DNA from: Micavibrio sp. UBA6145
Lineage (GTDB): Bacteria > Pseudomonadota > Alphaproteobacteria > Micavibrionales > UBA1664
Direction: 5' to 3'
DNA length: 64,000 nucleotides
NCBI GenBank assembly: GCA_002423205.1
Contig: DIUZ01000002.1
Location: forward strand, 65,409 to 129,408
Shown piece by piece: positions 2-57,459 of this stretch (position 1 is its first letter; each line of letters opens with the position of its first letter). The translations under genes and the position numbers were made by a program. The notes beneath the pieces were generated by a model. It made no database searches, was not told the origin of the DNA, and saw only the letters and a list, made by a program, of their open reading frames with translations.

Positions 2-2605
2 GGTGAATTGATCCGCGCGCAGCAACAGCTCGCGGGCGCAACCGCCGGCAAAAACAAAGTCGGCGCCAGCGAAGACGAAATCAAACGCTACCAGGACGAA
101 ATCACCAAACTGGATGCCCAGATCGCGCAGATGGAATCATCACGCGCACAAACCAATAAACAGATTGCTGAACTGCAGGCGCAACTCTCCCGCATCGGCA
201 ACACCAATGAAATCCGCCAGCAGGTGGATATCGAGCGCGCACGCCGCGAAGCATCCGAACGCGCGATGGCTGAACTGCAATCTTCATCGCAGGGCCGCGA
301 CCAGGAAGTCGCGCGTCTGCAGCAGCAACTCGCAACCGTAAAGGCCACGCCCGCAAACGATCCGCAGGCCGCCGTTGAAAAAGCCCGCCGCCAGGCAACA
401 GAAAATGAATTGCAAAAGGCGAAATCCGTCGCCGGTGCCGCTGACGCTGAAGCCATTCGTCTGGCGAAAGCCAACGCCGCCATGCAACAGCAGATGACGC
501 AGTTGCAAGCCGCCGCCAGCAACGACAAGGTTGCGCAGATGTCCGCACAACTCGCCACGCTGGAACAACGCAACAGCGAACTGATGGCGCAATTACAGGC
601 TGCAAAAACGCAAAACGAAGCTGCCGCCCAAGCCAGCGTCATGACCACCAGCAACGACGCCGCCACCAACCAGAAAATTGCCGAGCTGGGCCGCAAGGCT
701 GCCGCCGATCAGGCTGAAACGCTGGCACTCCTCGAAGCCGAAAAATCACGCCGCCAGAAACTCGAAGCCCTGCTGGCGCAGGGCGGCAGCGAAACCGGCA
801 GCAAGGCGGAAGAACTTGCCCGCCATGTTGCGGATTTGAGCCTGCGCAACGCACAGCTTGAAAAACGCCTGAGCAGCGAGCAGGCCTCGCTGCCCGCATC
901 GACGGATGCGCAAGTGGCCCAGCTGCAAAAACAATTGTCGTCGATGAAAAGCGATAACGCGATGCTGGCTGAAAAACTGGCCGTGCAAAGCATGTCCGCA
1001 GGCACCGGCGCGCAGGGCGCTGACGCCGAACGCCTTCAAAAACAGGTATCTGTCCTGAAAAGCGATAACGAAATGCTCGCGCAGAAACTGGCATCGAAAG
1101 CCACGCCTGCCGCGGCCCCGGTTACTGCAACCGCGACGGTTTACTCGGGTGATGACCAGATTGCCAGCGCCCTGGCTGAAACCAAGTCATCGCTCGCCTC
1201 CGTGACGGCTGAGCGTGACGAATACCGCAACCTGCTGCAACGCGAACGCCTGTCGCCCAAGGATACGGGTAAAGCGGCGACACCCACCGAAGACGGCACC
1301 AATGCGCGTATCGCGGCGCTGGAAGCCGAGCGTGTGGACCTGGCCCGCAAACTTGAATTCGAAAGATCCAAAAACGAAGCGGCCGGCATACCGTCTGGCG
1401 GTGAACCTACGGGCGTCCTGAAAGAATTGCAGGACAAGCTGGCCGACCTTCAGTCGGAAAAGAGCAAGCTGGAAAAACAACTCAAAGTAACGCAGCAGGA
1501 CGTCATCGACGCACGCATCAAGGCGCAGAGCGCTGCCGTCGCGTCCACCATGCCTGCAGTGCCCGTGGCTGATGTTCAGGCTCTGGTCAGCGAGAACAAA
1601 AAACTGCAAACCGAACTTGCCGCCGGTGGCCGCAGCGCCAACCCGGAAAGCGGTGCCATGCAAAGCGAGATTGCTTCCCTGCGCGCACAAAACCAGGTTC
1701 TGGCAAGCGAAGTTAACCAGCGTCTGTCCGCAGCGCCCGACCGCGCGGCTATGGACAACGCTGCCGCTGCGGCCAATTACAAAATGAAGGAAGCCCAGAA
1801 CATCGCGCAGGCCTCGGCATCTGCCGATATTCAAAAGGCGCAGACACGCTTCAACGCGGCTGAGTCCGAGAATATCCGCCTTGCGAAAGAACTGGCTGCC
1901 GCCCGCAACCAGATCGCACAGGTGCAGGCTGCACCGGTACAGGCCGCACCGGTTATGCAGGCTGCCCCCGTTATCGCCGCCGCCGTGCCGGGTGTTCGGG
2001 CATCGCATATCTCGCGCCCCATCAACGATTACGACACGGTCCCCGCATCGCAACCCATGGCACCGATGGTTGTGACCGCCACCGTCGCGCAGGCCCCGGC
2101 CATGATGCCGGTGACGCCGACGCAAGTTGCGTATGCACCGGCCGTCAATGTCGGCCCGTCAGGGTCTGACATCGCGCAGTATCTGCGCCGCGCCGGTATC
2201 CCCATGGTGTCGGGATTTGAAAAGGTCAGCAAGGTTTCAGGCCCGCAATTCGGCGCATTCCGCTGGGACACCGGTACGGTGTTCGGCACGGCTGAACAGG
2301 CCATCATGCAAAGCCCCGGCGGGTTTGAGCAGGCGGTGAATGCGTACCTGGCCAAGACGCGCCAGCGTTGCACCGGCACGTTTGACGAATCCTTCGATGC
2401 CGGCCAGTTCGCCCACAACAAGGACTTCGCGGTCGCCGATGTCGCCTGCGTCATGCCGGACGGCACGGGGGCAGGGGCCGCCATGGTGTTCTATTACAAG
2501 GACGGCACCTTCAACGTCATCGCCCACGAAGGCGACATTACCCAGTTCGATCAGGCTATGAGCACCCGGGATTCTTTGGCCCGCTTCATGGAAGGCGTGA
2601 TCTGA
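2..2605 (+). CDS. Large coiled-coil protein, 5'-truncated by the window edge; function unknown
   Basis: The frame is open from the window edge, with no in-frame stop upstream of position 8. About 640 aa are Q/A/E/K/L-rich and look like coiled coil. There is an internal 37-aa repeat (LQKQxSxxKSDNxMLAxKLA) at 923-982 and 1034-1093. VQAAP x3 lies at 1922-1970, followed by a non-repetitive ~150-aa C-terminal domain. I recognise no family. Confidence 0.75.
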   Translation, partial: GELIRAQQQLAGATAGKNKVGASEDEIKRYQDEITKLDAQIAQMESSRAQTNKQIAELQAQLSRIGNTNEIRQQVDIERARREASERAMAELQSSSQGRDQEVARLQQQLATVKATPANDPQAAVEKARRQATENELQKAKSVAGAADAEAIRLAKANAAMQQQMTQLQAAASNDKVAQMSAQLATLEQRNSELMAQLQAAKTQNEAAAQASVMTTSNDAATNQKIAELGRKAAADQAETLALLEAEKSRRQKLEALLAQGGSETGSKAEELARHVADLSLRNAQLEKRLSSEQASLPASTDAQVAQLQKQLSSMKSDNAMLAEKLAVQSMSAGTGAQGADAERLQKQVSVLKSDNEMLAQKLASKATPAAAPVTATATVYSGDDQIASALAETKSSLASVTAERDEYRNLLQRERLSPKDTGKAATPTEDGTNARIAALEAERVDLARKLEFERSKNEAAGIPSGGEPTGVLKELQDKLADLQSEKSKLEKQLKVTQQDVIDARIKAQSAAVASTMPAVPVADVQALVSENKKLQTELAAGGRSANPESGAMQSEIASLRAQNQVLASEVNQRLSAAPDRAAMDNAAAAANYKMKEAQNIAQASASADIQKAQTRFNAAESENIRLAKELAAARNQIAQVQAAPVQAAPVMQAAPVIAAAVPGVRASHISRPINDYDTVPASQPMAPMVVTATVAQAPAMMPVTPTQVAYAPAVNVGPSGSDIAQYLRRAGIPMVSGFEKVSKVSGPQFGAFRWDTGTVFGTAEQAIMQSPGGFEQAVNAYLAKTRQRCTGTFDESFDAGQFAHNKDFAVADVACVMPDGTGAGAAMVFYYKDGTFNVIAHEGDITQFDQAMSTRDSLARFMEGVI

Positions 2606-37574: not shown

Positions 37575-38654
37575 TTATTTCTCCATAGAGGAAGCCAGGG
37601 CGTCGTGCACGCAAGTCATGTCCACGGCCTGTGTGACGAATGCTTCGCCAATGCCGTGGGACAGGATAAACGTAAGGCGGCCGCCCTTAGCTTTTTTGTC
37701 GTTGGCCATCAGCGCGATCAGCGCCATGGGTGTGATCTTGGGGAATTTGGCAATGTCCGCGATACGTGTGGGCAGGCCCAGTTTTTTCATATGCGCTACG
37801 GCGATGTCGTTTTCATGCGTCAGTCCCATGCGTGCCGAAATGTCAAACGCAAGCGACATGCCCACAGCCACGGCTTCACCATGCAGGATCCGGCGGTCAT
37901 ATTCGCAGGCTGATTCCAGCGCGTGCGCGAATGTATGCCCGAAATTGAGAAGCGCGCGCGCCCCCCTTTCGCGTTCATCCGCATGGACGATGTCCGCCTT
38001 CATCTGACAGCTTTTTGCAATCGCATAGCGAAGCGCCGCGTCATCGCGCGCCAGCACTTTCTTGCCGTTGCTTTCCAGCCATTTAAAAAATTCACGGTCG
38101 CCCAGAAATGCGTATTTAACGATTTCAGCGTAACCCGCGCGCATCTGGCGGTCGGGCAGGGTGGTCAGGACGGACGTATCAGCCAGCACGAATTTGGGTT
38201 GATAAAACGCACCGATCAGGTTTTTACCCTGTTTGGCATTGATACCGGTTTTGCCGCCGACCGATGAATCCACCTGCGCCAGCAATGTCGTGGGTATCTG
38301 CACGTAATCAATGCCACGCAGGGTGATGGCGGCGGCAAACCCTGCATGGTCGCCGGTGACACCACCGCCGAACGCGGCGATCAGTGTCTGGCGGTCCGGT
38401 TTTTGCGCAAGCACCCAGTCCAGTGTTTTGCCCAGCATGGTCCAGCTTTTGGTGCCTTCACCCTCAGGCAGGATCAGAACGTTTTCTTTCAGGTAATCGG
38501 GAAGATGCGTTTGCGTGCCCTTGTCGCAAATGGTCAGCACGCGGCGGCCTTTGAAACGCTTGGCGGATGCCTCAAGCACACCGGCGCCGATGGCGATGTC
38601 GTAATCGCGTGCGCCGTCCAGTACGACATTCACCTTCGTTATTTTGGCTGGCAC
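37575..38654 (-). CDS. aroB: 3-dehydroquinate synthase
   Basis: The translation shows AFGGGVTGDHAGFAAA, GGKTGIN, NFGHTFAHALE and HGEAVAVGM. Confidence 0.93.
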   Translation of the reverse strand: MPAKITKVNVVLDGARDYDIAIGAGVLEASAKRFKGRRVLTICDKGTQTHLPDYLKENVLILPEGEGTKSWTMLGKTLDWVLAQKPDRQTLIAAFGGGVTGDHAGFAAAITLRGIDYVQIPTTLLAQVDSSVGGKTGINAKQGKNLIGAFYQPKFVLADTSVLTTLPDRQMRAGYAEIVKYAFLGDREFFKWLESNGKKVLARDDAALRYAIAKSCQMKADIVHADERERGARALLNFGHTFAHALESACEYDRRILHGEAVAVGMSLAFDISARMGLTHENDIAVAHMKKLGLPTRIADIAKFPKITPMALIALMANDKKAKGGRLTFILSHGIGEAFVTQAVDMTCVHDALASSMEK

Positions 38655-39205
38655 GTCTCCACACCTTTCAGGATCGCATTCAGCGCATCGTGATCGACGC
38701 GCTCAGTGGATACGGTAAAACACGCGGTTTCTTCGTACAAGGGACGACGTTTTTCCAAAAGCGTGGAAAGGATCTCTTCCGGGTTTCCATTTTGCAGCAA
38801 GGGGCGCTTGTTATTGCCCTCGCACCGCTTGGCAAGCGTGCGCGCACTGGCTGTCAGCCACACGGTAATCGCGCGCTCACGCAAAATGGCACGTGTCTGT
38901 GGCAAAACAATAATACCGCCGCCCGCCGCGATGATTTTGGGTGTGCCGTCCAGCAAACGGTCCATAACCTTGAATTCGCCGTCGCGAAACGCGTCTTCGC
39001 CGTAACGCGCGAAGTATTCGGATACGGTATAACCGGACGCGGCTTCAATCTCCTGGTCGGTGTCAAAAAATGGCAAACTTGTGGCTTTTGCCACATCACG
39101 GCCCAACTGTGTTTTGCCAGTACCCATCATGCCGATCAAAACAATGGGTTTTGTGGGCTTTATGAGGGTTTTATCAGTCTGATTAATGCTGTGGTCTTGC
39201 ATCAT
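38639..39205 (-). CDS. aroK: Shikimate kinase
   Basis: From the ATG at 39205 the translation includes ...IVLIGMMGTGKTQLGR (P-loop) and FFDTDQEIE. It is 188 aa and overlaps aroB by 16 nt. Confidence 0.9.
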   Translation of the reverse strand: MMQDHSINQTDKTLIKPTKPIVLIGMMGTGKTQLGRDVAKATSLPFFDTDQEIEAASGYTVSEYFARYGEDAFRDGEFKVMDRLLDGTPKIIAAGGGIIVLPQTRAILRERAITVWLTASARTLAKRCEGNNKRPLLQNGNPEEILSTLLEKRRPLYEETACFTVSTERVDHDALNAILKGVETCQPK

Positions 39206-39281
39206 GGTAGGCGTTATGCCATGAAAAGCCTGTCGAATAGAAGCGTTCTGTTCTTTAACCAAATTTGGAAGTGAGACTATT

Positions 39282-39695
39282 ATGGCTGAGAATAACAGCA
39301 AAACCTTTGTCATCGGTATCGTCGTTTTCGTTCTGCTGGTCATCGGCGGCTTCGCATTTTTCGCGAAAAAAGACGTTCCGGTCGAAACCACCCAGGCTGA
39401 AATGATGGCGGCTCCGGCTGCTGGCGACGCAACTGTCACCACGACCACCACCACCGAAGTCACACCGGCTGAAACCACCATGGCTCCGGCCCCGGTTCCG
39501 GCACAATCGGACGAAGCTGCTCCGGCTGCTGCTACCCCGGTTGCTCCGGCTTCGGAAACCACCCCGGTTGTTGTTCCGGGCGCTCCGACGTCTGACGTCA
39601 CCGCGACCCCGGCACCGACCCCGGTCCCGGCTCAATCGTCTGACACCGCTGGTTCGGCTACCCCGGCCCCGGCTGCTCCGGCTGCTGCCCAGTAA
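39282..39695 (+). CDS. Membrane-anchored P/A/T-rich low-complexity protein
   Basis: GGAAGTGAG SD upstream. The N-terminal TM is FVIGIVVFVLLVIGGFAFF, followed by ~100 aa of P/A/T/V repeats. A strong terminator lies directly downstream. Confidence 0.65.
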   Translation: MAENNSKTFVIGIVVFVLLVIGGFAFFAKKDVPVETTQAEMMAAPAAGDATVTTTTTTEVTPAETTMAPAPVPAQSDEAAPAAATPVAPASETTPVVVPGAPTSDVTATPAPTPVPAQSSDTAGSATPAPAAPAAAQ

Positions 39696-39752: not shown

Positions 39753-39786
39753 ATTTGTGCAAAATTCCTATAACTATCATTACATC

Positions 39787-41472
39787 ATGCGCATCAAATC
39801 CCTTGTCCTTACCGCCCTGTCACTCGCCCTGTTTTCGACGGGCGCAAGCGCCGCGTCATTGCGCGATATCGAAACCCGCGGCACGCTCACCAGCGCCCAG
39901 AACGGCCAGATCGACGGTAACATCTGGTCCGGCCTGTCACGCGCCGAGGCCCTGCTGCTGATCCGGTCGCTGCCGGATAAATATGCATCGCCCATTTATT
40001 ACGAACTGGCCCGCCGCCTGCTTCTGTCTGATGCGCCCGCGCTTGGTGCCGACAAAAACGGGAAAACCCCTGTCGATGACAAGGGTAACCCGGTTGCGGT
40101 AAATCCGAATGCGCCCGATGTGCTGATCGCGCGTCTTGATAAACTTCTGGCCATGGGCGCGATCCGCGATGCGGAGACATTGTATGCCGCCGTCGTTCCC
40201 GAAAACGTCGATGATTTTGACCTGGTGCTGCGCAACCAGCAGATACTGATGCTGCGCGGTCAATTGTCCGCCGCATGTCTCGATCTTCAGGCCGTGCAGA
40301 AACAACACTCCGGCAACGCCAAGTGGCAGGAACTCAACCGCCTGTGCCGCGTGCAGTTCATGGCCGGGGGGGCTGAACGCGACCGCCTGCTGAGCGAAAA
40401 GAAATTCGTCGAATTCCCGCAACTGGGTAATTACCTGCGCGGGCGAGGGGCGGGCGGTTACCGTTCCTTAAGCGTGGAAGACATGGCCTTTGCCGTGGCC
40501 ACCAAACAGATCAACGAAGGCACGCTGCGCTACCTGACATCGCAGGCCGGCAATCTGCCGCCGCTGCTGCTTTCGGTGCTGTACAATATGGATACCGGTC
40601 TGGATGTGCCGGAAAAGACCTGTCTTGCGATTGAATCCGCACGTCGCGGCATCATCACCACGCGCGACCTGATCACGCTGTATGAAAAGCCGCACTATGA
40701 CTCGGCGCTGCTGCTCCAGAATCTGGGTACCAATCCGTCTGGTGCTATCCATCCCTGCATGGTCCCGACCGTGATGTACCAGCGCATTGCCTCCAACAAG
40801 GATCTGCCCGCCCGCGACCAGACCATCCGCTCCGCCCTCGATATTATGGGCGACCTGCCGGACGCGGCGTTCTGGCCGATGTCCGTGTATTTTGAGGATT
40901 TCGACATTCATGCCAGCGCGAATAAACCCTATCTCTGGCGTCTGACCCGCATCACCGCCTATGAAAAAGACGAACTGCCCTCGGCCTGGCGCGACTGGGA
41001 TGACCAGAACGGCCTTCCGGGTATTTCGCCCTTCTGGCCCGTTCAGGCGATCATGTCCCCCAGCGGCAACGAAGCGCAGGAAATGGACCTCTGGAAAACC
41101 CAGTGGCCGGACCAGGCGAACCGAATCTTGGGCAGGGACCCGGCATTGCCCCTGTTGCTGGGATTGGCTTTAAGCCCCAAAGACGGCAAAACATCGAAAA
41201 ACCTTAAGACTAACTTGTATGATTATGAAAATATTTTACCGTTGACATTTTCCAGAAGTTATTCTATGCCTTCCTTTGGATTGACGCAGCGCTTGTCCAA
41301 TGTTATTAAAAATAATCAGACGGGTCAGTCCGTCGCGCTGCTACTGATCGGATACGGAGCCATCCCGCCAGATCAGGTCATTCCAACCCAGGTGGCATTG
41401 GTAATCGATGGGTTAAATCGTGCCGGTTTGGGACGCTATTCAAGGCGTTTCGGGCTGGAAGTCCTGCGTTAA
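39787..41472 (+). CDS. Secreted/periplasmic protein of unknown function
   Basis: A signal peptide MRIKSLVLTALSLALFSTGASAAS starts at the ATG at 39787. The protein is 561 aa and I recognise no domain. Confidence 0.65.
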   Translation: MRIKSLVLTALSLALFSTGASAASLRDIETRGTLTSAQNGQIDGNIWSGLSRAEALLLIRSLPDKYASPIYYELARRLLLSDAPALGADKNGKTPVDDKGNPVAVNPNAPDVLIARLDKLLAMGAIRDAETLYAAVVPENVDDFDLVLRNQQILMLRGQLSAACLDLQAVQKQHSGNAKWQELNRLCRVQFMAGGAERDRLLSEKKFVEFPQLGNYLRGRGAGGYRSLSVEDMAFAVATKQINEGTLRYLTSQAGNLPPLLLSVLYNMDTGLDVPEKTCLAIESARRGIITTRDLITLYEKPHYDSALLLQNLGTNPSGAIHPCMVPTVMYQRIASNKDLPARDQTIRSALDIMGDLPDAAFWPMSVYFEDFDIHASANKPYLWRLTRITAYEKDELPSAWRDWDDQNGLPGISPFWPVQAIMSPSGNEAQEMDLWKTQWPDQANRILGRDPALPLLLGLALSPKDGKTSKNLKTNLYDYENILPLTFSRSYSMPSFGLTQRLSNVIKNNQTGQSVALLLIGYGAIPPDQVIPTQVALVIDGLNRAGLGRYSRRFGLEVLR

Positions 41473-43805: not shown

Positions 43806-44231
43806 ATGCAAGACCACACAAGTGCGGGAATGGAAAAGGCCGCTGACGCCTTAACCCAGGCATCGTCCGCTTTGGTAAGCCGCAATATCACCGTTCTGGG
43901 CAGACGCACATCCATACGCCTTGAGGCGCAGATGTGGACGGCGCTCAGGGAAATCGCAGACCGTGAACGCTGCTCCGTGCACGAGCTATGCTCGCTGGTG
44001 GCCACGCGCCGCAAACCGGGCCTGTCGCTTACCGCGTCCATCCGCATCTTCCTGATGCTGTATTACAAGGCGGCATCGACCGAGGACGGCCATAGTCGCG
44101 CCGGCCATGGTGGACTTGACCGCATGGTGGGTCGGCTAATGCCTGCACGCCGCACCGAGGGCCCGAACCCCGGCACAGAACCGATGCTTAACAGCATGGG
44201 ACGCAGCCCGGCCAGTTTCGCCACCGCCTGA
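43806..44231 (+). CDS. Ribbon-helix-helix domain protein (long paralogue)
   Basis: AAGGGGGG SD upstream. The core ITVLGRRTSIRLEAQMWTALREIADRERCSVHELCSLV...LTASIRIFLMLYY can be aligned to the 66-aa ORF at 13318-13518. There is an extra ~60-aa C-terminal tail. Confidence 0.7.
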   Translation: MQDHTSAGMEKAADALTQASSALVSRNITVLGRRTSIRLEAQMWTALREIADRERCSVHELCSLVATRRKPGLSLTASIRIFLMLYYKAASTEDGHSRAGHGGLDRMVGRLMPARRTEGPNPGTEPMLNSMGRSPASFATA

Positions 44232-44272
44232 CCCGGTAATCCCGCCCGGTAAGTCCCGATAGTCTTTAGGTT

Positions 44273-44302
44273 GGCGCCCCTTTCGGGGCGTTAACTTTTT
44301 TG
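44273..44302 (+). terminator. Probable intrinsic terminator
   Basis: CGCCCC-TTTC-GGGGCG followed by TTAACTTTTTT. Confidence 0.6.
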
Positions 44303-44373
44303 TTCGCTAAAAACTTTGCGAAGTCCCGGTCTTTTGCGCTACTTCTGGAAACAACAGGGATAGCGAAAAGGCA

Positions 44374-47300
44374 ATGGGCAAAACAAAGCCAGCCGGACAA
44401 AGCCGGGACAAAACCGTTACTGCCATCAAGGCCGCCATCATGGCAACCCCGGATGAGGGGGAGTCCGCGCCAATCGTTTTTCCCGACATCAAAACCCGGG
44501 GCGAAGATGCCTTTACGGCTGTAACCGATTTTGTCGAAAGCCTGATCGAAGCACAGCAGCCGCTGCATATATCGGCGACGTGGAAAGAGGCGGGCCTGCG
44601 CGGCCACGGCCACCTGATCCAGATCGCATCCCGCCACGCGATGGAGGCGGCACGCGCAGCCTATGACCGCGCGGTATCTAAGTCCGGTTTCACAGCAACG
44701 CCCGAAACGCTGGACCAGCACCCGGCCTTGGATTTTGAGGCTGCTATGGAGTGGCTGTTCAAAACCAATGCCCGCCTTTTCTCCGACCGTACCTATGCGC
44801 ATCTCGGCGGTTCATCCGAAGCGTTTTACGGCGCGATTCAAAAATCTTATGCAGACCTTGCATGCCAGAGCGCCAAGGTGGCGCAATCCATGCTGGACGC
44901 GGATGAAGACGACCCGCGCGCGCTTCGCATCATCGAACGCATATGGTCGGTGTGCTTTGACCGTCTGGGTATCCAGACGCTCGACGATCATCTGGCGGAG
45001 GCACTGGGTTTTACAGCGGGTTATCTTGATACGTTGGAATACCGTGCCACACGCGGAAAACTGCGCACCAGTCTACGTGAGGCATCAAAACTGCGCTGGT
45101 CTGACCGCAACGGGCGCAGTTACGGCGAGGCAATCATAGACGCATGGGCTACCATGCAGAACGATGAAAGCGTTCTGGAAGATACCTCCACCTTTGCCGG
45201 TACCAATTTCACGCCCGAAACGTTCGAGCATGAATTTGAACGCATGCTGGATGTGCTGATTACCAAAGACCTGCAGGCGCTGGAAAACCATGAGATGGAT
45301 GTGAGTGAGCTTTATGCCCTCATGGAAAATCTGGAACGCTGGCGTGATATGTTTGGCGAGGTTGAAGAACCCGAAGACATTGACCCCGACCATGCGGGGG
45401 AGGATTTCTGGCGTTTCCATGTACTCCAGAAATTCGGCTATGGCAGTTACACCCATATGATGGAATGCCTGAACAGTTCCTATGCCAGCCTTCAGGCCAA
45501 TATGGTCTTAGATACGCGCGCGCAGGGTAATCCGGACGATGTTTATGACTCGCTTATGGAGGTACGCGATTACCTGCAAAAGGGTAATATCGCCTTCGAC
45601 CGTCCCGGCGCGTTCGCGGCGATCATGCTGGACCGCGACGCCTATTTCGCCGCGCTGACTGAAACTGCGCCTGCCGCCATCGACCGTGATTTCAATTACA
45701 CCTATCAGCCCGCCCTGAAAACGGAGCAGCGTTTGCAGATTCTTCTCAACGCTGACGACGCCTTTGACCGCATCGACGGCACGCCGGCAATGGCCCGGAC
45801 GTCCGCGTCGCCGCGCAGCCTTGCCGCGCAGCTGGAAAAGACGCGCATGCGCCGGGCTGAGGAAATATTGGCCATGTCCCGCATCGCCTATACCGGCGAG
45901 GGACTGTATCTGGTCATGAAGCCGGCGCTGGAGCTGCTGGATGATCTGGGACTGACCCTGCTGTCGGATGAATTCCATACCCGCACCGGCATGGACGAAA
46001 AACGTGCTGCATCGCTGGCAAGACTGTTTGATGATGCAGATATCAGCACGCTTTGGAAAACTGCCACCAGCGACGACGAAGACCCGCTGCAACGTCTGGT
46101 CTATGCCATGGAATTCGAAAACCGGTTTGAGAAACTGGATGCAACACGTCAGGTGGCGTTGCTGCACACTCTCGACGGCAGCGAACAGCAGCATCGCATG
46201 CACCTGTCACAGATTGCTGATCTTGCCATGAATACGGCGGTGGAACGCATGGCGCTGGCCCCGCAGGACACGCTCAAAAATGCTGAGTTTTTGTTAGTGA
46301 TCCGCAACGGCCTGAACCTTATGAATCCGAACGCGTTGGACCATCCGCTGGTATTCAAGCGCCTGACGGGCAAGGATCTGGCGGAATTCCTGAGTGTCGA
46401 GCAGGATACAAAATCACGCGTGGAACAGTTGGTCGACGCCGACCGCAACCCGTTTGTCATCACGAAGGAACAGGCCGCCGAGCGTCTGGTAAAAATCACT
46501 CGCATGAAACCATCGGCCGAGGGCTGGTGCGCACTGCGTGATCTGCGCCATGACGCCATCATCACCGGCTTCAGCCTGGCCGATAACGACATACTGAATG
46601 CCGCCCGTATCAATTACAGCAATCTGGCCGATCTGAATGCGCAGCACGCGCTGGCCGGCGCGCAGGAATGCCTGGATGCCGCACTGGCCAAGGGGCCGGG
46701 CATGGTGTCCCTGAAGAATCTGGATGCCCACCAGTATCATGATTTCGTAATGGCCCGCCGCTGGCTGGGCCGAAGCGGCTTCGCGCTGTTGCAGGACGAC
46801 GCATACGAAGCCATGGGTCTTGCCGGTCGCGCAGACTTCGTCGAGCGCATGCGAGAAAGCCTGTTCGATTACGCGATGCAGATTGAATCTGCAATTTTCC
46901 GTGAAGGGATCACCCTTGTCGGGCCGTTCCAGTATCTGAAGGCCATGCGCGAAATGCGCGACGCTTATCAGGCGCTGGGCTTTGACAATGAGCGCGATGA
47001 CGGCGCCGAATTGCCACCGGATATGACCTCCAACGCGGTCAGCGTGACAACGGTCCGCAGGGCGCTCTCCAGTTTTGCGCCGCGCGCACACCTGGCCATC
47101 CTTAACAGTGACCGCCCGTCAAGCGTCAAACACCGCCAGATGCGTGAAATCATGCAATTTTCTGCGCGTATGGGTATCGGTTTTCCCAACAATGACACTA
47201 CACAGGCGATCAACCAGAAACTCACCGATACCGTCTATGGCCGCCTGAAGCATGTACTGGATGTCTTTGCCAAAAAGCCGGACGACATGGCGCGCGGCTG

Positions 47301-48447
47301 GCGTATCGCCCATGCCATTGGCCTGGTCCGGGACGAATACAATCTTGAGCGCCTGTCATGGTTTGACCAGATGTTTGAACCGCTTGGATACCGTACCTTC
47401 CGTGATTTCTGCGAGGACATGGCCGTCAAACGCCTGGATCAACTGCATCACCGTTGCCAGCGCCGGATCACCACCGCCGATGTGGACCAGGTGTCCAGCG
47501 GTGCCTTCCATCGCGACATTATCGCCAACATCGCCCGCATGCGTTCCGTCATTGAATCGCCGTTTCTGGACGACGCATACGTCAATCTGATCATGAATAA
47601 TGCCGGCGTCAGCAGAGAGTGGATGAATGCAACCGAACGCCTGTCCGCGTCACTGGCGTTGCCGATGATGGCCGACATCGTTTTTGACCCGACCCTGCAG
47701 CCCGAAAACCGTGCCATGCATATTGATGATGTTTTTACCCTGCGTAACCTGGTCGGATCCGAAGACCGCATCATCAAGCGCATGGATTGGGATGAACTGA
47801 ACGAAGTACGCTCCGAGATGCTGTTAATGCGCGCATCTCACCATATACTGCGTGACATGATGCGTGGAGACAGGCCGTCATGGTCGCCCCGCATGCTGCA
47901 GGTTTATGCCCTGCTGGAACAGAACGGCCTGACACTGTCAGATACGGCGCATTTGCAGGCGATGGGCCTGAGTGAGGGGGAGGCTGCACAGTATGCATCC
48001 CTCGACCGTCTGGCATTTGCCTACACTATGCTTTTGCATCTGGACAAGATCGACCCGAAACAGATCGGCACCACGCACAACATCGTGGTGGGCATGTTCC
48101 GCGACGCGGACCGCAACGGCATCGATTTCAAGGACCGCAACGTGCAATACATGCTGGGCCTGCGTTCAGATAATGAAATGCATCAGCTGATTATCGCGCC
48201 CGCACTGTTTGTCGCACGTAGTTTTTCGGCCACGCTGAAAGACACGCAGGATCCGGTACAGGGCCGCACCCTCGGAAAAGCCATGCAAAATTTCATGAAA
48301 GCCACGCGCCTTGAAGCCCATGTGGATCAGGGTGTATTGAAAGAATTCGGCATCTTTGACCGTGCTTCTCTGGGGCGTCTGATCGGCGACTTCGGCAGGG
48401 CGTTGAAGACAAAGCGCCGCAAGGACAACGCTCTGCAACCGGCTTAA
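44374..48447 (+). CDS. Very large (1357 aa) acidic helical protein of unknown function
   Basis: One uninterrupted ORF with composition like the surrounding genome. I see no signal peptide, TM segment, P-loop or metal motif. A G-hydrophobic motif recurs through the protein (see findings). Confidence 0.75.
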   Translation: MGKTKPAGQSRDKTVTAIKAAIMATPDEGESAPIVFPDIKTRGEDAFTAVTDFVESLIEAQQPLHISATWKEAGLRGHGHLIQIASRHAMEAARAAYDRAVSKSGFTATPETLDQHPALDFEAAMEWLFKTNARLFSDRTYAHLGGSSEAFYGAIQKSYADLACQSAKVAQSMLDADEDDPRALRIIERIWSVCFDRLGIQTLDDHLAEALGFTAGYLDTLEYRATRGKLRTSLREASKLRWSDRNGRSYGEAIIDAWATMQNDESVLEDTSTFAGTNFTPETFEHEFERMLDVLITKDLQALENHEMDVSELYALMENLERWRDMFGEVEEPEDIDPDHAGEDFWRFHVLQKFGYGSYTHMMECLNSSYASLQANMVLDTRAQGNPDDVYDSLMEVRDYLQKGNIAFDRPGAFAAIMLDRDAYFAALTETAPAAIDRDFNYTYQPALKTEQRLQILLNADDAFDRIDGTPAMARTSASPRSLAAQLEKTRMRRAEEILAMSRIAYTGEGLYLVMKPALELLDDLGLTLLSDEFHTRTGMDEKRAASLARLFDDADISTLWKTATSDDEDPLQRLVYAMEFENRFEKLDATRQVALLHTLDGSEQQHRMHLSQIADLAMNTAVERMALAPQDTLKNAEFLLVIRNGLNLMNPNALDHPLVFKRLTGKDLAEFLSVEQDTKSRVEQLVDADRNPFVITKEQAAERLVKITRMKPSAEGWCALRDLRHDAIITGFSLADNDILNAARINYSNLADLNAQHALAGAQECLDAALAKGPGMVSLKNLDAHQYHDFVMARRWLGRSGFALLQDDAYEAMGLAGRADFVERMRESLFDYAMQIESAIFREGITLVGPFQYLKAMREMRDAYQALGFDNERDDGAELPPDMTSNAVSVTTVRRALSSFAPRAHLAILNSDRPSSVKHRQMREIMQFSARMGIGFPNNDTTQAINQKLTDTVYGRLKHVLDVFAKKPDDMARGWRIAHAIGLVRDEYNLERLSWFDQMFEPLGYRTFRDFCEDMAVKRLDQLHHRCQRRITTADVDQVSSGAFHRDIIANIARMRSVIESPFLDDAYVNLIMNNAGVSREWMNATERLSASLALPMMADIVFDPTLQPENRAMHIDDVFTLRNLVGSEDRIIKRMDWDELNEVRSEMLLMRASHHILRDMMRGDRPSWSPRMLQVYALLEQNGLTLSDTAHLQAMGLSEGEAAQYASLDRLAFAYTMLLHLDKIDPKQIGTTHNIVVGMFRDADRNGIDFKDRNVQYMLGLRSDNEMHQLIIAPALFVARSFSATLKDTQDPVQGRTLGKAMQNFMKATRLEAHVDQGVLKEFGIFDRASLGRLIGDFGRALKTKRRKDNALQPA

Positions 48448-49976
48448 GCGCGCTTCATTCTTTCGCGCAGGTAAGACGCCACGCTGTCCATCGGAATGCG
48501 TTCCTGCTTCATCGTATTGCGCTCACGCACCGTGACCGTGCCGTCGGCAACGGTCTGGTCGTCGATGGTAAAGCAATACGGCGTGCCGATTTCGTCCTGA
48601 CGGGCGTAACGCTTGCCGATGTTTTGTTTGATATCCAGATCGACCACGAATTCGTCGCGCAGCTCCATGTACAGCTTGGTCGCCAGCACCGGGTGCTGGT
48701 CTTTGGCGGTGAGGGGCAGAATGGCCGCCTTTTTCGGTGCCACGGACGGATGGAAATTAAGATACACACCCGACGGACGCGACGGATCGACCGTATACGC
48801 CTCGCACAGCAGGGCCAGAACGCCGCGCGTCAGGCCCGCCGCCGGTTCGATGACATGGGGCATGAAACGTTCGTTCGTGACCGGGTCGAAGTAATCAAGT
48901 TTTTGTTTCGAATGCGTCTGGTGCTGGGTCAGGTCGTAATCGGTGCGGTAGGCAATGCCTTCCAGCTCGCCGAAGCCCGGTGCCGTGAACGGGAATTTGT
49001 ATTCAATATCGAACGTGCCCTTGGAATAGAACACCAGTTCGTCCTGGCCGTGTTCGCGCATCAGGATGTTGTCGCCCGACAGGCCGATCTGCTGCCAGAA
49101 TTTCTGACGCTCGGCCTTCCAGAAATCAAACCACATTTGCGCATCTTTCGGATGGCAGAAGAATTCCATTTCCATTTGTTCAAACTCTCGCGAGCGGAAG
49201 ACGAAGTTACGCGGATTCACTTCATTGCGGAATGCCTTGCCGACCTGTGCAATGCCGAACGGCACTTTTACGCGGCTGGAATCCACGACGTTTTTGAAGT
49301 TGATGAAAATGCCCTGCGCCGTCTCACCGCGTAAATACGCGATGTTGTCGTCCGATGCGACCGCGCCGATTTTTGTTTCGAACAAAAGGTTGAAGGCCTT
49401 GGGTTCGGTCAGCGTACCGATTTCCTTGGCATCGGGACCCAGGATTTTGCCGTAGTCGGCGAACGGAATGCTGTTCAGTGCCTTGCGGGTGTAATCGCCC
49501 TCGGTCTTGCCCTTGCCGAATTTTTTGATGCGTGACGGGGTAATGTCGTCTTCGTCCGATTGCGGAACGGCAAGCCACGCGCCGTTGCCATCATTCGGCA
49601 CCAGCACGTCAATGTGATCTTCGCGGTAACGTTTCTTGGTTTCCTTGCAATCTACCATCGGGTCGGCAAAACCGCCGACATGGCCGGATGCGACCCAGAC
49701 TTTCGGGTTCTGGATGATCGCGGAATCAAGGCCGACAATCTCAACCGGTTCGCCGTCCGGGCCGATCGGCGGGCACAGGACCATGGATTTCCACCACAGG
49801 TCACGCAGGTTGTTTTTCAGCTCAACGCCCAGCGGGCCGTAATCCCAGAAGCCGTTAATGCCGCCGTAAATGTCGGAGGCGCCAAAGATGAAACCGCGGC
49901 GCTTGCACAGCGCGACAATGTCTTTCATCAAATCCGTAGGCTTGGCTTCCTGAGCCGGGGCTTTTTCAGCAGTCAT
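48444..49976 (-). CDS. glyQS: Glycine--tRNA ligase, single-chain alpha2 (GlyQS) type
   Basis: The translation shows ...RRGFIFGASDIYGGINGFWDYGPLG, FRNEVNPRNFVFRSREFEQMEMEFF and a C-terminal anticodon-binding domain. 510 aa. Confidence 0.92.
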   Translation of the reverse strand: MTAEKAPAQEAKPTDLMKDIVALCKRRGFIFGASDIYGGINGFWDYGPLGVELKNNLRDLWWKSMVLCPPIGPDGEPVEIVGLDSAIIQNPKVWVASGHVGGFADPMVDCKETKKRYREDHIDVLVPNDGNGAWLAVPQSDEDDITPSRIKKFGKGKTEGDYTRKALNSIPFADYGKILGPDAKEIGTLTEPKAFNLLFETKIGAVASDDNIAYLRGETAQGIFINFKNVVDSSRVKVPFGIAQVGKAFRNEVNPRNFVFRSREFEQMEMEFFCHPKDAQMWFDFWKAERQKFWQQIGLSGDNILMREHGQDELVFYSKGTFDIEYKFPFTAPGFGELEGIAYRTDYDLTQHQTHSKQKLDYFDPVTNERFMPHVIEPAAGLTRGVLALLCEAYTVDPSRPSGVYLNFHPSVAPKKAAILPLTAKDQHPVLATKLYMELRDEFVVDLDIKQNIGKRYARQDEIGTPYCFTIDDQTVADGTVTVRERNTMKQERIPMDSVASYLRERMKRA

Positions 49977-50004: not shown

Positions 50005-50481
50005 TTATTCTTTGGGGCCGGTTTGTTGCATATAGCCCTGGACGTAACCGTCTTCGATACGGTCATCCTGAATCGTACGGCGCAGCTGTGTGCTCGATTT
50101 CGGGGTGTATTTGTAGATGATCTTTTTCTTTTCCGGCTGGCCGAAACCGCTGAACGGATCGCCGATGCCGTTATAACCAAATTGCTGGCCGTCCGCGACG
50201 CCGTCACCGTCACGGTCCAGCGATTGCGCGCCGGGGAAATTGTTGACCGGCATCTGGGTCAGGAAATCTTCATCCGACGGGGACAGGGTGCCAGAGGTGT
50301 TGCCCGAATTACGCGCGGTGCTTCTGCCGTATTGGTTCTGCGTCAGCGCCTGTTGCTGCGCGGCTTCGCGCTGGGCCGATGTCGTCGTGAAATTATTGGT
50401 CGTGTTCGCCGTCTGCGCTTTGACGCCCGCCGGAACGGCAAGCATGACAAGGGCGGCAAGGAAAATGGTTCTCGTGATCAT
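50005..50481 (-). CDS. Small secreted protein with DxDxDG-type acidic loop
   Basis: The signal peptide is MITRTIFLAALVMLAVPAGVKA. The sequence is N/Q/T-rich and contains DRDGDGVADG. Confidence 0.6.
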   Translation of the reverse strand: MITRTIFLAALVMLAVPAGVKAQTANTTNNFTTTSAQREAAQQQALTQNQYGRSTARNSGNTSGTLSPSDEDFLTQMPVNNFPGAQSLDRDGDGVADGQQFGYNGIGDPFSGFGQPEKKKIIYKYTPKSSTQLRRTIQDDRIEDGYVQGYMQQTGPKE

Positions 50482-50495
50482 AAAGCCACGCTACC

Positions 50496-51011
50496 ATGGT
50501 TTTTATGGGTACGGAAGCTTTCAGACTGGCGGTTTTGAGCCGCGAACACGTGGACCGCGCGGCGGCATTTTTTAACTATAAACCGGGTGGATCGGACGAT
50601 ATCGCCCTGCGTAAAAACATGGTCTCCGGCGACTGGACGGTCATCCTCGCGGCGGACGGGGACACGGATATCGGCGGGGCCTATATCAACTGGACCCCCA
50701 AATATCAGGTCTACCAGCGCATGGATCTGCCCGAAATTCAGGATTTGCGGGTATCGCCCGGCCATCGCCGCCGGGGCATTGCCACCGCCATCATAGAAAT
50801 GGCTGAGAATCAGGCCCGGCAGGCCGATAAGATGGGGATGGGCCTGTCCGTGGGCCTGCATGCCGGCTACGGCGACGCCCAGCGCCTCTATGCCAGAATT
50901 GGCTATATCCCGGACGGTTATGGTATCACCTATGACCGGATTACCGTGCCGGCGGGCGAGGCCCGCAAGATCGACGACGATCTGGCCCTGATGCTGTTGA
51001 AATTTTTCTAA
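50496..51011 (+). CDS. GNAT family N-acetyltransferase
   Basis: ...IQDLRVSPGHRRRGIATAIIEMAENQA... is the acetyl-CoA motif A. The start is uncertain, as it lies only 14 bp from the divergent gene's start. Confidence 0.75.
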   Translation: MVFMGTEAFRLAVLSREHVDRAAAFFNYKPGGSDDIALRKNMVSGDWTVILAADGDTDIGGAYINWTPKYQVYQRMDLPEIQDLRVSPGHRRRGIATAIIEMAENQARQADKMGMGLSVGLHAGYGDAQRLYARIGYIPDGYGITYDRITVPAGEARKIDDDLALMLLKFF

Positions 51012-51232
51012 CGGAAAGCGCGATGTACATACCGCCTCACACAGGTCATGAAGCTGAAGGATGGGCCGCCATAGGCCGTGCTTTTGCACGCGCGGTAAAG
51101 GGCGTCTGCCGCTTGATCGCAAACCTTCGCAAATGCCGCAAACACCAAAAAATCCCAAGTTATAAGGCGCTGGAACCAGCGCGGAATCCCCGCTAGAGTC
51201 CCCTCGATTTCATACATCCAAGCGAGGGTTTA

Positions 51233-56172: not shown

Positions 56173-57459
56173 ATGCTCGGCTTTATAAAAACCTTTTTTA
56201 AAGGGGCTAAACCCCGCCTTCGCCTGCGTCAGGAAAAAGACCCTGTACGCTATGAAAAGGAACGCGCGCTGGCCGCCAGCGCCACGAAACGCGACCGCCT
56301 GAAACTCGCGAAAAATCCGAACACACATCTTGAGATTTTGTATTACCTGGCCGCAGACGCCGATGAAGATGTGCGCCTGGCCGTTGCCAGAAACGATTCC
56401 ACCCCCTTGCAGGTCAGCCCCATCATCGCCCGCGATAAAAGCGTGGATGTGCGTATGGCGCTGGCCCAGCGTTTGATGGAATTGCTGCCTGAATTATCCG
56501 AGGCGCAGCATAGCCAGCTTTACGCCTTCGCGGCGCAGGCGCTGGGCGTGCTTGCACTCGATGAGGTGTTGAAGGTGCGCATTGCCCTGTCATCCGTGCT
56601 CAAGGACATGGCCTGCGCGCCGCCCGCCGTGGTAACGCAGCTCGCCCGCGATCTGGAACGTCAGGTGTCGGAACCGATCTTGCGTTACTGCGCGGCACTG
56701 CCTGATAAAGATCTGCTGGATATTCTCTCCGAACACCCGCAGGACTGGGTGGTGGAGGCCATCGCCAGCCGCCGCACTGTGTCCGAACGCGTATCCGACG
56801 CCGTAGTGGAAAAACGCAGCGTATCGGGTGGCCGCGCATTGATTGCCAATGACGGTGCCATGCTGTCCAACGACGCGCTGGTGCGCGTGGTCGAAAGCGC
56901 GCGTGAATTGCCCGAATGGCAAAAGCCGTTATGCCTGCGCAAACATCTGCCGGGTTTCCTGATGAAGGAGATCGTGCGCTTCGTCGACACCTCGCTGCAT
57001 AAATTCATTCTGGCGCGTACCGATTTTGACGACGCCACCCGCATTGAAATCGAAGACACGGTCAAACGCCGCATGCGTTTTCTGGTCGACGATGCAGGCA
57101 ACCGCATTACGCCCAAGGACAAGCTCGCCATCCTCCATAAAACAGGAAAACTCGACGACGCGGTCATGGCCGACGCGCTGGCCCTACGTGAGCATGAATT
57201 CATCCAGATGGGCCTGGCCCTGCGGTCCAAGCTGCCGCTGGACACGGTCAAACGCATGTTTGAAACCAGGTCCGCCAAGGCGGTCACGGCGCTGGCCTGG
57301 CGGGCGGGCCTGACCATGCGCTTTGCCCTGGACCTCCAGCGCGAACTGGCCAAAGTCCCCCATACCGAGCTTCTATACCCCCGGAATGGCGAGGATTTCC
57401 CGCTTTCCGACGAGGAAATGGACTGGCAGATCGGGTTCTTTAAGCCAGAAAAAGCTTGA
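56173..57459 (+). CDS. DUF2336-like HEAT/ARM-repeat protein
   Basis: Repeated ...D.DVR.A.A... helical units are present. The C-terminal ...LHKTGKLDDAVMADALALREHEFIQMGLALRSKLPLDTVKRMF... matches my recollection of DUF2336. Confidence 0.55.
   Translation: MLGFIKTFFKGAKPRLRLRQEKDPVRYEKERALAASATKRDRLKLAKNPNTHLEILYYLAADADEDVRLAVARNDSTPLQVSPIIARDKSVDVRMALAQRLMELLPELSEAQHSQLYAFAAQALGVLALDEVLKVRIALSSVLKDMACAPPAVVTQLARDLERQVSEPILRYCAALPDKDLLDILSEHPQDWVVEAIASRRTVSERVSDAVVEKRSVSGGRALIANDGAMLSNDALVRVVESARELPEWQKPLCLRKHLPGFLMKEIVRFVDTSLHKFILARTDFDDATRIEIEDTVKRRMRFLVDDAGNRITPKDKLAILHKTGKLDDAVMADALALREHEFIQMGLALRSKLPLDTVKRMFETRSAKAVTALAWRAGLTMRFALDLQRELAKVPHTELLYPRNGEDFPLSDEEMDWQIGFFKPEKA

Follow-up and report, generated by a model that had tools for sequence, protein, structure and literature searches.

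What kind of protein is encoded by the longest open reading frame (ORF) in a 64-kb stretch of DNA from Micavibrio sp. UBA6145 (contig DIUZ01000002.1, positions 65,409 to 129,408)? The whole stretch, at its full length, is here called the window. The ORF lies at 44374-48447 on the forward strand and codes for 1357 amino acids (aa). An earlier reading of the letters alone (the original prediction) had correctly picked it out as the largest ORF of the window and described it as an acidic, helical orphan protein built around a recurring motif of about 28 residues, rich in glycine-hydrophobic pairs and perhaps helix-hairpin-helix-like (HhH). The analysis below shows with high confidence that the all-alpha protein consists of about 20 copies of a three-helix unit of about 63-65 residues, arranged as 2 x 10 units. 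What such a protein does is a separate matter, and is treated with more reserve. The gene and its two halves are as follows; P0001 is a relative of 90% identity and L081 its contig.

44374..48447, + strand: coding sequence of the 1357-aa acidic all-alpha repeat protein, stop codon included (ORF call; ratio of nonsynonymous to synonymous substitution rates, dN/dS, of 0.13 against L081; collinear homologues of 1345-1446 aa)
44488..46443, + strand: N-terminal half, residues 39-690, units u1-u10 (hhalign self-comparison; AlphaFold2 mean predicted local distance difference test score, pLDDT, 87.1 and predicted template modelling score, pTM, 0.81)
46504..48435, + strand: C-terminal half, residues 711-1354, units u11-u20, paralogous to the N-terminal half (self-match and hhalign; pLDDT 88.1, pTM 0.81)

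The gross properties agree with the early description. The protein is acidic, with an isoelectric point of 5.27, 205 Asp and Glu residues vs 157 Lys and Arg, a net charge of -48 and a mass of about 150 kDa; the helical character is borne out by AlphaFold2 models and their DSSP assignment, which are all-alpha. The absence of a recognizable domain, signal peptide, transmembrane segment or P-loop is likewise upheld by database scans, hydropathy and motif searches. The highest Kyte-Doolittle mean over 19 residues is 1.23, so that no transmembrane segment is found, and the motif scan detects no P-loop, RTX (GG.G.D) or Tat motif. As judged by hydropathy and by comparison of family N-termini, no signal peptide is seen: the N-terminus is hydrophilic and predicted to be disordered. 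The protein has no match in Pfam (E <= 1), NCBIfam, PDB sequences, PADLOC or PHROGs; direct annotation searches with profiles of 4 and 14 family sequences and with the isolated unit are similarly empty, and a Pfam scan of the 14 family members at E <= 0.1 gives nothing beyond two isolated chance-level matches. Confident assignment to a known family is thus lacking in Pfam, NCBIfam and PDB, as well as in structural comparison with Foldseek (template modelling (TM) scores <= 0.18). The GC content of the ORF (0.569) and that of its third codon positions (0.67) are close to those of its neighbours (0.56-0.60 and 0.70-0.74), and the gene is therefore considered native.

Is the protein a genuine repeat protein? 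At the level of the single sequence the short motif is not informative, as pairs of motif copies give ungapped scores of 30-40, no better than those of shuffled sequences (top score 39 +/- 4, maximum 54). Of a different order is the ungapped match of residues 78-150 with residues 748-820, which extends over 73 residues and scores 89 against the same shuffle maximum of 54. Self-comparison of a four-orthologue profile with hhalign aligns residues 39-555 with 711-1214 (E = 8.4e-17, 481 columns). A half of about 650 residues has been duplicated in tandem to give the whole protein, a feature that had not been noticed before.

Within each half there is a finer periodicity. AlphaFold2 models were made of each half separately with alignments of 12-13 family sequences, and both are entirely helical (mean pLDDT 87.1 for the N-terminal and 88.1 for the C-terminal half, pTM 0.81 for both). 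By DSSP, a unit recurs about every 65 residues, ten times per half, and is composed of a medium helix A (about 15-18 residues), an extended linker (6-8), a short helix B (about 5-8), a turn (3-5) and a long helix C (about 22-30). The glycine-hydrophobic (G-phi) positions fall in the linker between helices A and B and in the turn between B and C. The unit consensus has 63 positions, TDGEHAYNALLEAADWLQEAGIDLLDDETLKALGLSPAEFRALLDRAALAAAAQLWRAAEDKG, and a net charge of about -8; in its segment EAGIDLLDDETLKALGLSPAEF the two G-phi positions lie 13 residues from each other on either side of a helix, and GhG does not occur.

Do the units also resemble one another in sequence? The 14-sequence family alignment was sliced at the 20 unit boundaries and the slices compared all against all, profile with profile, with column-reversed slices as the null. 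Of the 180 pairs of non-equivalent units, 61 score above the 99th percentile of this null, against an expectation of about 2 (Mann-Whitney p = 4e-20), and the alignments are in register. An iterative hidden Markov model (HMM) of the unit recovered only its nine seed units and was dropped as circular; it was replaced by a leave-one-out hhalign test in which the paralogous partner of the tested unit is omitted as well. Nine units (u1, u2, u4, u6, u8, u11, u12, u18 and u19) are found by this test at full length with E values of 1e-8 to 2e-5, with reversed controls at 0.07-0.7. The other eleven range from 1.4e-3 (u3) to 0.41 (u14), and ten of these eleven beat their reversed control, u14 being the one that does not. 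The units are listed below with their leave-one-out E values; noted copies are those of the original prediction.

44491..44685, + strand: u1, residues 40-104, robust, previously missed (E = 3e-6, in register)
44707..44907, + strand: u2, residues 112-178, robust, among the most conserved, previously missed (E = 5e-8; conservation score 1.30)
44908..45102, + strand: u3, residues 179-243, holds the noted copy at 196, weak (E = 1.4e-3, full length, in register)
45106..45291, + strand: u4, residues 245-306, robust, previously missed (E = 7.5e-7)
45292..45531, + strand: u5, residues 307-386, structural unit with an insertion, marginal in sequence (E = 0.018; DSSP; score 39 vs u15)
45532..45705, + strand: u6, residues 387-444, robust, previously missed (E = 1e-8)
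45712..45882, + strand: u7, residues 447-503, structural unit, marginal in sequence (E = 0.029; DSSP)
45889..46074, + strand: u8, residues 506-567, holds the noted copy at 523, robust (E = 2.6e-7)
46078..46263, + strand: u9, residues 569-630, weak (E = 2.9e-3, in register)
46264..46443, + strand: u10, residues 631-690, holds the noted copy at 645, a unit on structural grounds only (E = 0.054; DSSP)
46504..46698, + strand: u11, residues 711-775, robust, previously missed (E = 2.5e-7)
46720..46923, + strand: u12, residues 783-850, holds the noted copy at 799, robust, the most conserved unit of the family (E = 2.1e-5; score 67 vs u2; conservation score 1.50)
46924..47109, + strand: u13, residues 851-912, marginal, with a low-confidence loop at about 875-885 (E = 0.027; pLDDT < 50 at residues 175-185 of the C-terminal half)
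47113..47280, + strand: u14, residues 914-969, holds the noted copy at 931, repeat signature undetectable (E = 0.41; family alignment)
47281..47481, + strand: u15, residues 970-1036, marginal as a repeat, well conserved in the family, with WF and F1012 motifs (E = 0.0098; conservation score 1.20)
47491..47685, + strand: u16, residues 1040-1104, marginal as a repeat (E = 0.016)
47692..47871, + strand: u17, residues 1107-1166, marginal (E = 0.012)
47878..48054, + strand: u18, residues 1169-1227, holds the noted copy at 1182, robust (E = 6.9e-6)
48058..48249, + strand: u19, residues 1229-1292, holds the noted copy at 1246, robust (E = 2e-7)
48250..48435, + strand: u20, residues 1293-1354, holds the noted copy at 1322, weak (E = 0.0099, partial alignment)

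The core idea of the original prediction, that of large repeated modules with a G-hydrophobic motif as their mark, was right, but its details need revision. The 28-residue motif is a real conserved core, running from the end of helix A through the G-phi linker, helix B and the G-phi turn to the start of helix C; the true repeat, however, is the unit of about 63-65 aa present in about 20 copies. All eight listed copies exist, at residues 196, 523, 645, 799, 931, 1182, 1246 and 1322, but only four are robust: those in u8, u12, u18 and u19 (2e-7 to 2e-5). The copies in u3 (1.4e-3) and u20 (1e-2) are weak, and those in u10 (0.05) and u14 (0.41) are unsupported. Eight was not the full count, since five strong copies (u1, u2, u4, u6 and u11) were overlooked, and the consensus as it was written matches none of the copies when taken as a strict regular expression. 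The spacings of 64-327 aa between the copies are not free but are whole multiples of the unit of about 65 aa. The proposed check on repeat statistics gave a divided outcome: not significant for motif pairs from the single sequence, significant with family profiles only.

How might such an array have arisen? Equivalent units across the two halves score highest against one another (u1-u11 49, u2-u12 67, u5-u15 39 and u8-u18 32), and therefore the duplication of the half is younger than the amplification of the unit. As read from these comparisons, amplification of the unit came first and tandem duplication of the whole array later.

Does the unit belong to a known repeat family? Foldseek comparisons (both halves against PDB, the C-terminal half against BFVD) return generic helical-repeat proteins only: designed repeat proteins, Ctr9, Ski3, Naa15, tetratricopeptide (TPR) subunits of the anaphase-promoting complex (APC), karyopherins and exocyst/MUN rods. 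Although the probabilities are as high as 0.99, the TM-scores stay at 0.09-0.18 and the root-mean-square deviations exceed 20 Å. Isolated real units have no match in Pfam, and the best match of the unit profile in PDB has E = 0.18; the idealized unit consensus gives sub-threshold noise only in Pfam. Matches obtained with a tripled idealized consensus (DUF3197, PhyR sigma-like) were rejected as inflated and artificial, as real units do not reproduce them. Neither the protein nor the 14 family members have a TPR, Sel1, Arm or HEAT match in Pfam. Tandem helical units that repeat both in sequence and in secondary structure place the protein in the alpha-solenoid class, and the unit is filed as a new repeat family within that structural class, a member of no named family.

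Comparisons with well-known solenoids help to define the unit. ARM repeats, too, combine a short, a medium and a long helix, form all-alpha solenoids by stacking and act as protein-binding scaffolds, but the ARM unit has about 42 aa, whereas the unit here, at about 63-65 aa, is half as long again and has longer helices; the extended G-phi segment before the short helix and the helix order are specific to the present family, and no ARM template is superposable. The TPR/Sel1-like scaffolds (Ctr9, Ski3, Naa15 and the APC subunits) are the best Foldseek matches, and they too are long helical-hairpin solenoids in which small residues (G/A) mark helix junctions; their units, however, have two helices and 34-44 aa, and the TM-scores are those given above. 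In gross form the protein is similar to karyopherin-beta/HEAT solenoids, which have about 20 repeats and 100-150 kDa, are acidic and all-alpha, and occur among the Foldseek matches (3ibv, 4c0p, CRM1 and Kap114). HEAT units, in contrast, consist of two helices and about 40-47 aa, sequence similarity is nil, and karyopherins are eukaryotic. Karyopherins wrap basic cargo, but this offers a possible functional analogy only, as the likeness is one of form and there is no known Ran-like or cargo partner here.

Is the gene under selection, and how widely is it found? A word-indexed search of 5.8 billion proteins found only P0001, with the protein as well as with the family alignment as query, and nothing with the unit alignment, but its candidate list is saturating or too small, so that it carries little weight for remote homologues. 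An exhaustive HMMER scan (query residues 158-1357, 1.84 billion representatives) yields a family of only 13 members, 11 of which are full length (1345-1446 aa) and 23-33% identical; the term orphan was therefore nearly right. Collinear full-length homologues are 18-34% identical. Syntenic orthologues were recovered indirectly by way of the neighbouring proS gene. Comparison of the window with L081 gives dN = 0.052, dS = 0.39 and dN/dS = 0.13 for the ORF; along its length dN/dS ranges from 0.06 to 0.29, and no window of 150 codons exceeds 0.29. For proS, accA and the RHH_4 gene dN amounts to 0.0038, 0.0059 and 0.0095, respectively, such that dN of the ORF is 9-14 times that of accA and proS. 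The protein is under purifying selection, yet takes amino-acid changes about ten times faster than its housekeeping neighbours. With the more distant relative on L001, housekeeping neighbours are 74-87% identical and the large protein 23%. Absence of translation, put forward as a way in which the original prediction could fail, is contradicted by the dN/dS value and the conserved full-length homologues.

From position and sequence comparison, the ORF is a single-copy positional orthologue limited to one clade and vertically inherited. A unit HMM run over about 1.5 Mb of sequence matches orthologues of the ORF only, and a family HMM, applied to every ORF in the surroundings of proS from 80 genomes, finds only the two syntenic orthologues. 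What is the clade? The best matches of its ProS are metagenome-assembled genomes (MAGs) labelled 'Alphaproteobacteria bacterium' (82-86%), and the nearest named relatives are Micavibrio MAGs (75-76%). In MAGs labelled Micavibrio, in which synteny is disrupted, the family was not detected beside proS. Micavibrio itself is filed by NCBI under Bdellovibrionota; genome phylogeny places it in the Alphaproteobacteria (PMC3189940).

Conservation is highest in the two units that open each half (u1/u2 and u11/u12) and in family-specific motifs in u14-u16. In the family alignment, the motif K-x-PG-x-PAR-G runs from the C-terminal edge of u14 into u15, and the motif LALP...DPTL, at residues 1094-1108, begins in u16 and ends early in u17; a single column of the 14-sequence alignment is invariant, P1106. 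The two ends of the protein are as follows:

44374..44466, + strand: N-terminal 31 residues or so, predicted disordered, without a signal peptide (pLDDT < 50 at residues 1-31; family N-termini)
48370..48444, + strand: last 25 residues, forming a basic tail of net charge +5 (11 of the 12 full-length members have +1 to +5 here)

The N-terminal region is variable across the family and acidic in most members. The family C-terminal tail is basic, rich in Pro and Ala, and often ends in ...(K/Q/P)-P-A. Most full-length members carry a net charge of -45 to -74, and there are 5-16 cysteines per member.

Sequences upstream of the ORF carry putative expression signals:

44268..44297, + strand: intrinsic-terminator-like hairpin and T-run that ends the RHH_4 transcript (13-bp stem with 7 GC pairs, then TTTTTTG)
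44305..44343, + strand: promoter-like block, consisting of an A-rich CGCTAAAAAC, a -35 element TTGCGA at 44316-44321, a 16-nt spacer and a -10 element GCTACT at 44338-44343 (alignment of 9 orthologue upstream regions)

The terminator after RHH_4 is real, and it implies that the ORF is transcribed on its own. The promoter-like block is kept in most orthologues as CGTAAAAAA, followed by TTGCG, 16-18 nt and GCTAC. It is taken here to resemble the alphaproteobacterial housekeeping sigma-70 promoter; in Caulobacter the consensus of this promoter is TTGACGS at -35 and GCTANAWC at -10. A scan for E. coli-type promoters misses the block. The gene was said to have its own Shine-Dalgarno sequence, but the site, either AAGG at 2 nt or GGGA at 13 nt upstream of the ATG, is a weak or ambiguous one; the gene was also said to lie between two terminator-bounded units, which holds upstream only. 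Downstream, the stop codons of the ORF and of the convergent proS overlap in the palindrome TTAA at 48444-48447, and therefore there is neither intergenic space nor a terminator between the two genes. Across the 9 orthologue upstream regions, no conserved full CtrA box, sigma-54 or sigma-28 promoter or DnaA box was found, the full CtrA box TTAA-N7-TTAA being present in 0 of 9. A sequence GTTAAC(C)AT that resembles the CtrA half-site TTAACCAT immediately precedes the promoter block, but only in the two orthologues on L087 and L003. In the window, GTTAAC at 44292-44297 forms the 3' arm of the stem of the RHH_4 terminator.

What, then, might the protein do? The explanation judged on balance to be probable, although by no wide measure, is that the ORF is a genuine lineage-restricted gene for an acidic all-alpha solenoid that serves as a cytoplasmic scaffold or adaptor. 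Large alpha-solenoids generally serve as scaffolds that bind proteins, and the functional part of the explanation, a cytoplasmic acidic protein-binding scaffold, is proposed tentatively as an inference only. The protein would be made from its own housekeeping-type promoter and remain in the cytoplasm, a location that is suggested because there is no export signal, there are 5-16 cysteines, and RTX repeats and adjacent secretion genes are absent. It would act as an extended, bivalent (two-half) scaffold or adaptor for protein-protein interactions, with u1-u2, u11-u12 and the family-specific motifs in u14-u16 as candidate binding surfaces; the basic Pro/Ala-rich tail might either fold back onto the acidic body or tether the body to a partner. 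Several points weigh against this explanation. AlphaFold can be over-confident on idealized helical repeats with alignments as shallow as the 12-13 sequences used here. With TM-scores of at most 0.18 there is no superposable template, so the label solenoid stands for DSSP periodicity plus generic matches, and 11 of the 20 units are weak or undetectable by sequence. The proposed function draws no help from genomic context: the neighbours are unrelated housekeeping genes, and their synteny is uninformative on function. Fast evolution and a conserved basic tail would also fit an exported factor of a probably predatory lineage.

That exported factor is the main rival, albeit an unlikely one. The protein would be a predation or host-interaction factor with a non-cleaved C-terminal signal, leaving the cell by a type I or other route to act on or in the prey, and its divergence would reflect an arms race. 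Type I substrates typically have an acidic isoelectric point and no N-terminal signal, as is the case here, and 11 of the 12 full-length members have a basic tail rich in Pro and Ala on a protein that in most of them is otherwise acidic. The protein is 18-34% identical among relatives with housekeeping neighbours that are 74-87% identical, but the dN/dS of 0.06-0.29 along the whole gene gives no sign of positive selection. The original prediction had advised a search for secretion signals, and this produced the basic tail but no RTX GGxGxD repeats, Tat motif or linked transporter genes (no ABC, MFP or TolC genes nearby); the 5-16 cysteines per member also speak against export. A helical solenoid of about 150 kDa would probably fold readily in the cytoplasm and so make an awkward type I substrate. 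The nearest named ProS relatives are Micavibrio MAGs (75-76%), and members of this genus prey epibiotically and have secretion systems of types I and II (PMC3189940). However, the family is undetected in Micavibrio proper, in the HMMER scan and at proS loci alike, and M. aeruginosavorus is reported to be without type III and IV systems (PMC3189940); a reading of the basic tail as that of a type IV secretion effector was down-weighted for the latter reason. Could the protein instead mark a cell pole? As a special case of a scaffold, it might belong with cytoskeleton-like proteins or polar landmarks, self-assembling or marking the pole and recruiting developmental factors. Alphaproteobacterial polarity factors are large, acidic, helical, lineage-specific and fast-evolving, two homologous halves could provide bivalent interactions, and two orthologues have the CtrA half-site-like TTAACCAT right ahead of the promoter block, where the window has GTTAAC. 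A full CtrA box is nevertheless absent from all 9 upstream regions, the GTTAAC belongs to the RHH_4 terminator stem, and the protein has no membrane anchor, no peptidoglycan-binding domain and no homology to named polarity proteins; this role is judged unlikely.

The HhH suggestion of the original prediction, in which each G-hydrophobic motif would be a DNA or RNA contact module of a nucleic-acid-binding repeat protein, appears highly improbable. HhH motifs are defined by a G-h-G type hairpin loop that joins two short antiparallel helices. The likeness lies in a short helix between glycine-containing turns and in a motif core, phi-x-x-phi-G-phi-S/T-x-x-E, that superficially recalls helix-turn-helix (HTH) or HhH turns, and the idealized consensus or unit profile gives sub-threshold matches to PhyR sigma-like, LexA HTH, RuvA_C and the RAD51 N-terminal domain. 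These matches, however, are non-significant, and the real units have neither a Pfam match nor a PDB match better than E = 0.18. Pfam HhH families are not found at E <= 1 for the protein, E <= 10 for isolated units or E <= 0.1 for the 14 members, in which HTH families are likewise absent at that threshold. In place of a 20-aa DNA-binding hairpin, the motif is embedded in an acidic three-helix unit of 63 aa without G-h-G, and charges of about -8 for the unit consensus and -48 for the whole protein are unfavourable for nucleic-acid binding. A non-functional sequence, either a chance long ORF or a decaying pseudogene, would account for the lack of known domains and the very few homologues, but is effectively refuted by the dN/dS of 0.13, the intact length of 1345-1446 aa in 11 lineages, the confident AlphaFold2 models and the conserved promoter block. 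There is also a more ambitious form of the scaffold explanation, possible but doubtful: a new alpha-solenoid class, unrelated by descent to TPR, ARM or HEAT repeats, may have been amplified to 2 x 10 units in one Micavibrio-like, probably predatory clade, and may act as a karyopherin-like binder or chaperone of basic clients or as a predation-specific scaffold essential to the lifestyle.

The favoured explanation, that of an orphan helical-repeat scaffold, is in itself unsurprising and opens no long-standing question. Of more use is the description of a new unnamed repeat family, as the unit consensus, the boundaries, the two-step duplication history and the confident models can serve as a seed for a family model and for constructs. 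Attack-phase expression in M. aeruginosavorus is dominated by uncharacterized genes (PMC3189940). If the present clade is predatory like Micavibrio, fast-evolving lineage-specific proteins such as this one would be candidates for uncharacterized attack-phase genes.

The window is core chromosome, and the immediate neighbours of the ORF are:

43806..44231, + strand: small ribbon-helix-helix gene RHH_4 (PF13467), upstream neighbour (Pfam E = 1.5e-19; synteny in L081-L087)
48444..49976, - strand: proS, prolyl-tRNA synthetase, convergent neighbour (Pfam and sequence; same arrangement in L001, L003 and L083-L087)

The gene order is aroB/aroK, a 571-aa gene, xerD, accA, RHH_4, the ORF, convergent proS, a 158-aa gene, a GNAT gene and ppdK; farther away in the window are parC, carB, fumC, kup, asmA and others. 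In all relatives examined, RHH_4 lies upstream on the same strand as the ORF, and the slot consisting of RHH_4, at times an opposite-strand patatin gene, the ORF and convergent proS is the same in every readable relative contig. The gap between the ORF and proS in relatives varies from a 4-base overlap (L081, L082 and L003) to a few tens of bases. Assignment of a function from gene neighbourhood was rejected, as the entire block is conserved housekeeping synteny. ABC, MFP, TolC or other secretion genes are absent among annotated ORFs for about 8 kb on each side and at five orthologue loci.

Several other genes of the region are worth noting. A patatin-like phospholipase gene of 437-494 aa is found on the opposite strand between RHH_4 and the large ORF in L084 (4552-6036, - strand) and L085 (6075-7388, - strand); the gene at L001:7688-9163 is probably patatin-like too. 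The insertion is missing from the window and from L081, L083, L086 and L087. The 571-aa orphan (39757-41472, + strand) has no match in Pfam, PADLOC or PHROGs, is kept upstream of xerD in all relatives examined (545-582 aa), and is 64% identical to its L001 counterpart over the 137 C-terminal residues available. Another large uncharacterized protein, of 865 aa, is encoded at the edge of the window (8-2605, + strand), also without a match in Pfam, PADLOC or PHROGs. The 158-aa gene (50005-50481, - strand) belongs to no known family and is 30-35% identical to its L001 and L003 counterparts; therefore it, too, is fast-evolving. The 226-aa ORF at 50478-51158 (- strand) is a shadow ORF, the real gene being the GNAT acetyltransferase gene at 50496-51011 (+ strand), as in relatives. 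A few genes downstream, at 56173-57459 (+ strand), a protein of the uncharacterized family DUF2336 is encoded (PF10098, E = 1.6e-41), likewise in L084 and L087.

Two observations concern housekeeping genes. After the Micavibrio-like MAGs, the next relatives of the clade's ProS are not from other Alphaproteobacteria but from Planctomycetota/Phycisphaerales (55-62%, loci L018-L059). This suggests that the ProS may be of a non-alphaproteobacterial type, either by ancient transfer or as a distinct ProS class. The longest ORF for aroK (38639-39601, - strand) has 320 aa, with the shikimate-kinase domain at residues 159-307, and the genes of relatives code for 198-201 aa; the true aroK start probably lies some 120 codons past the first in-frame one.

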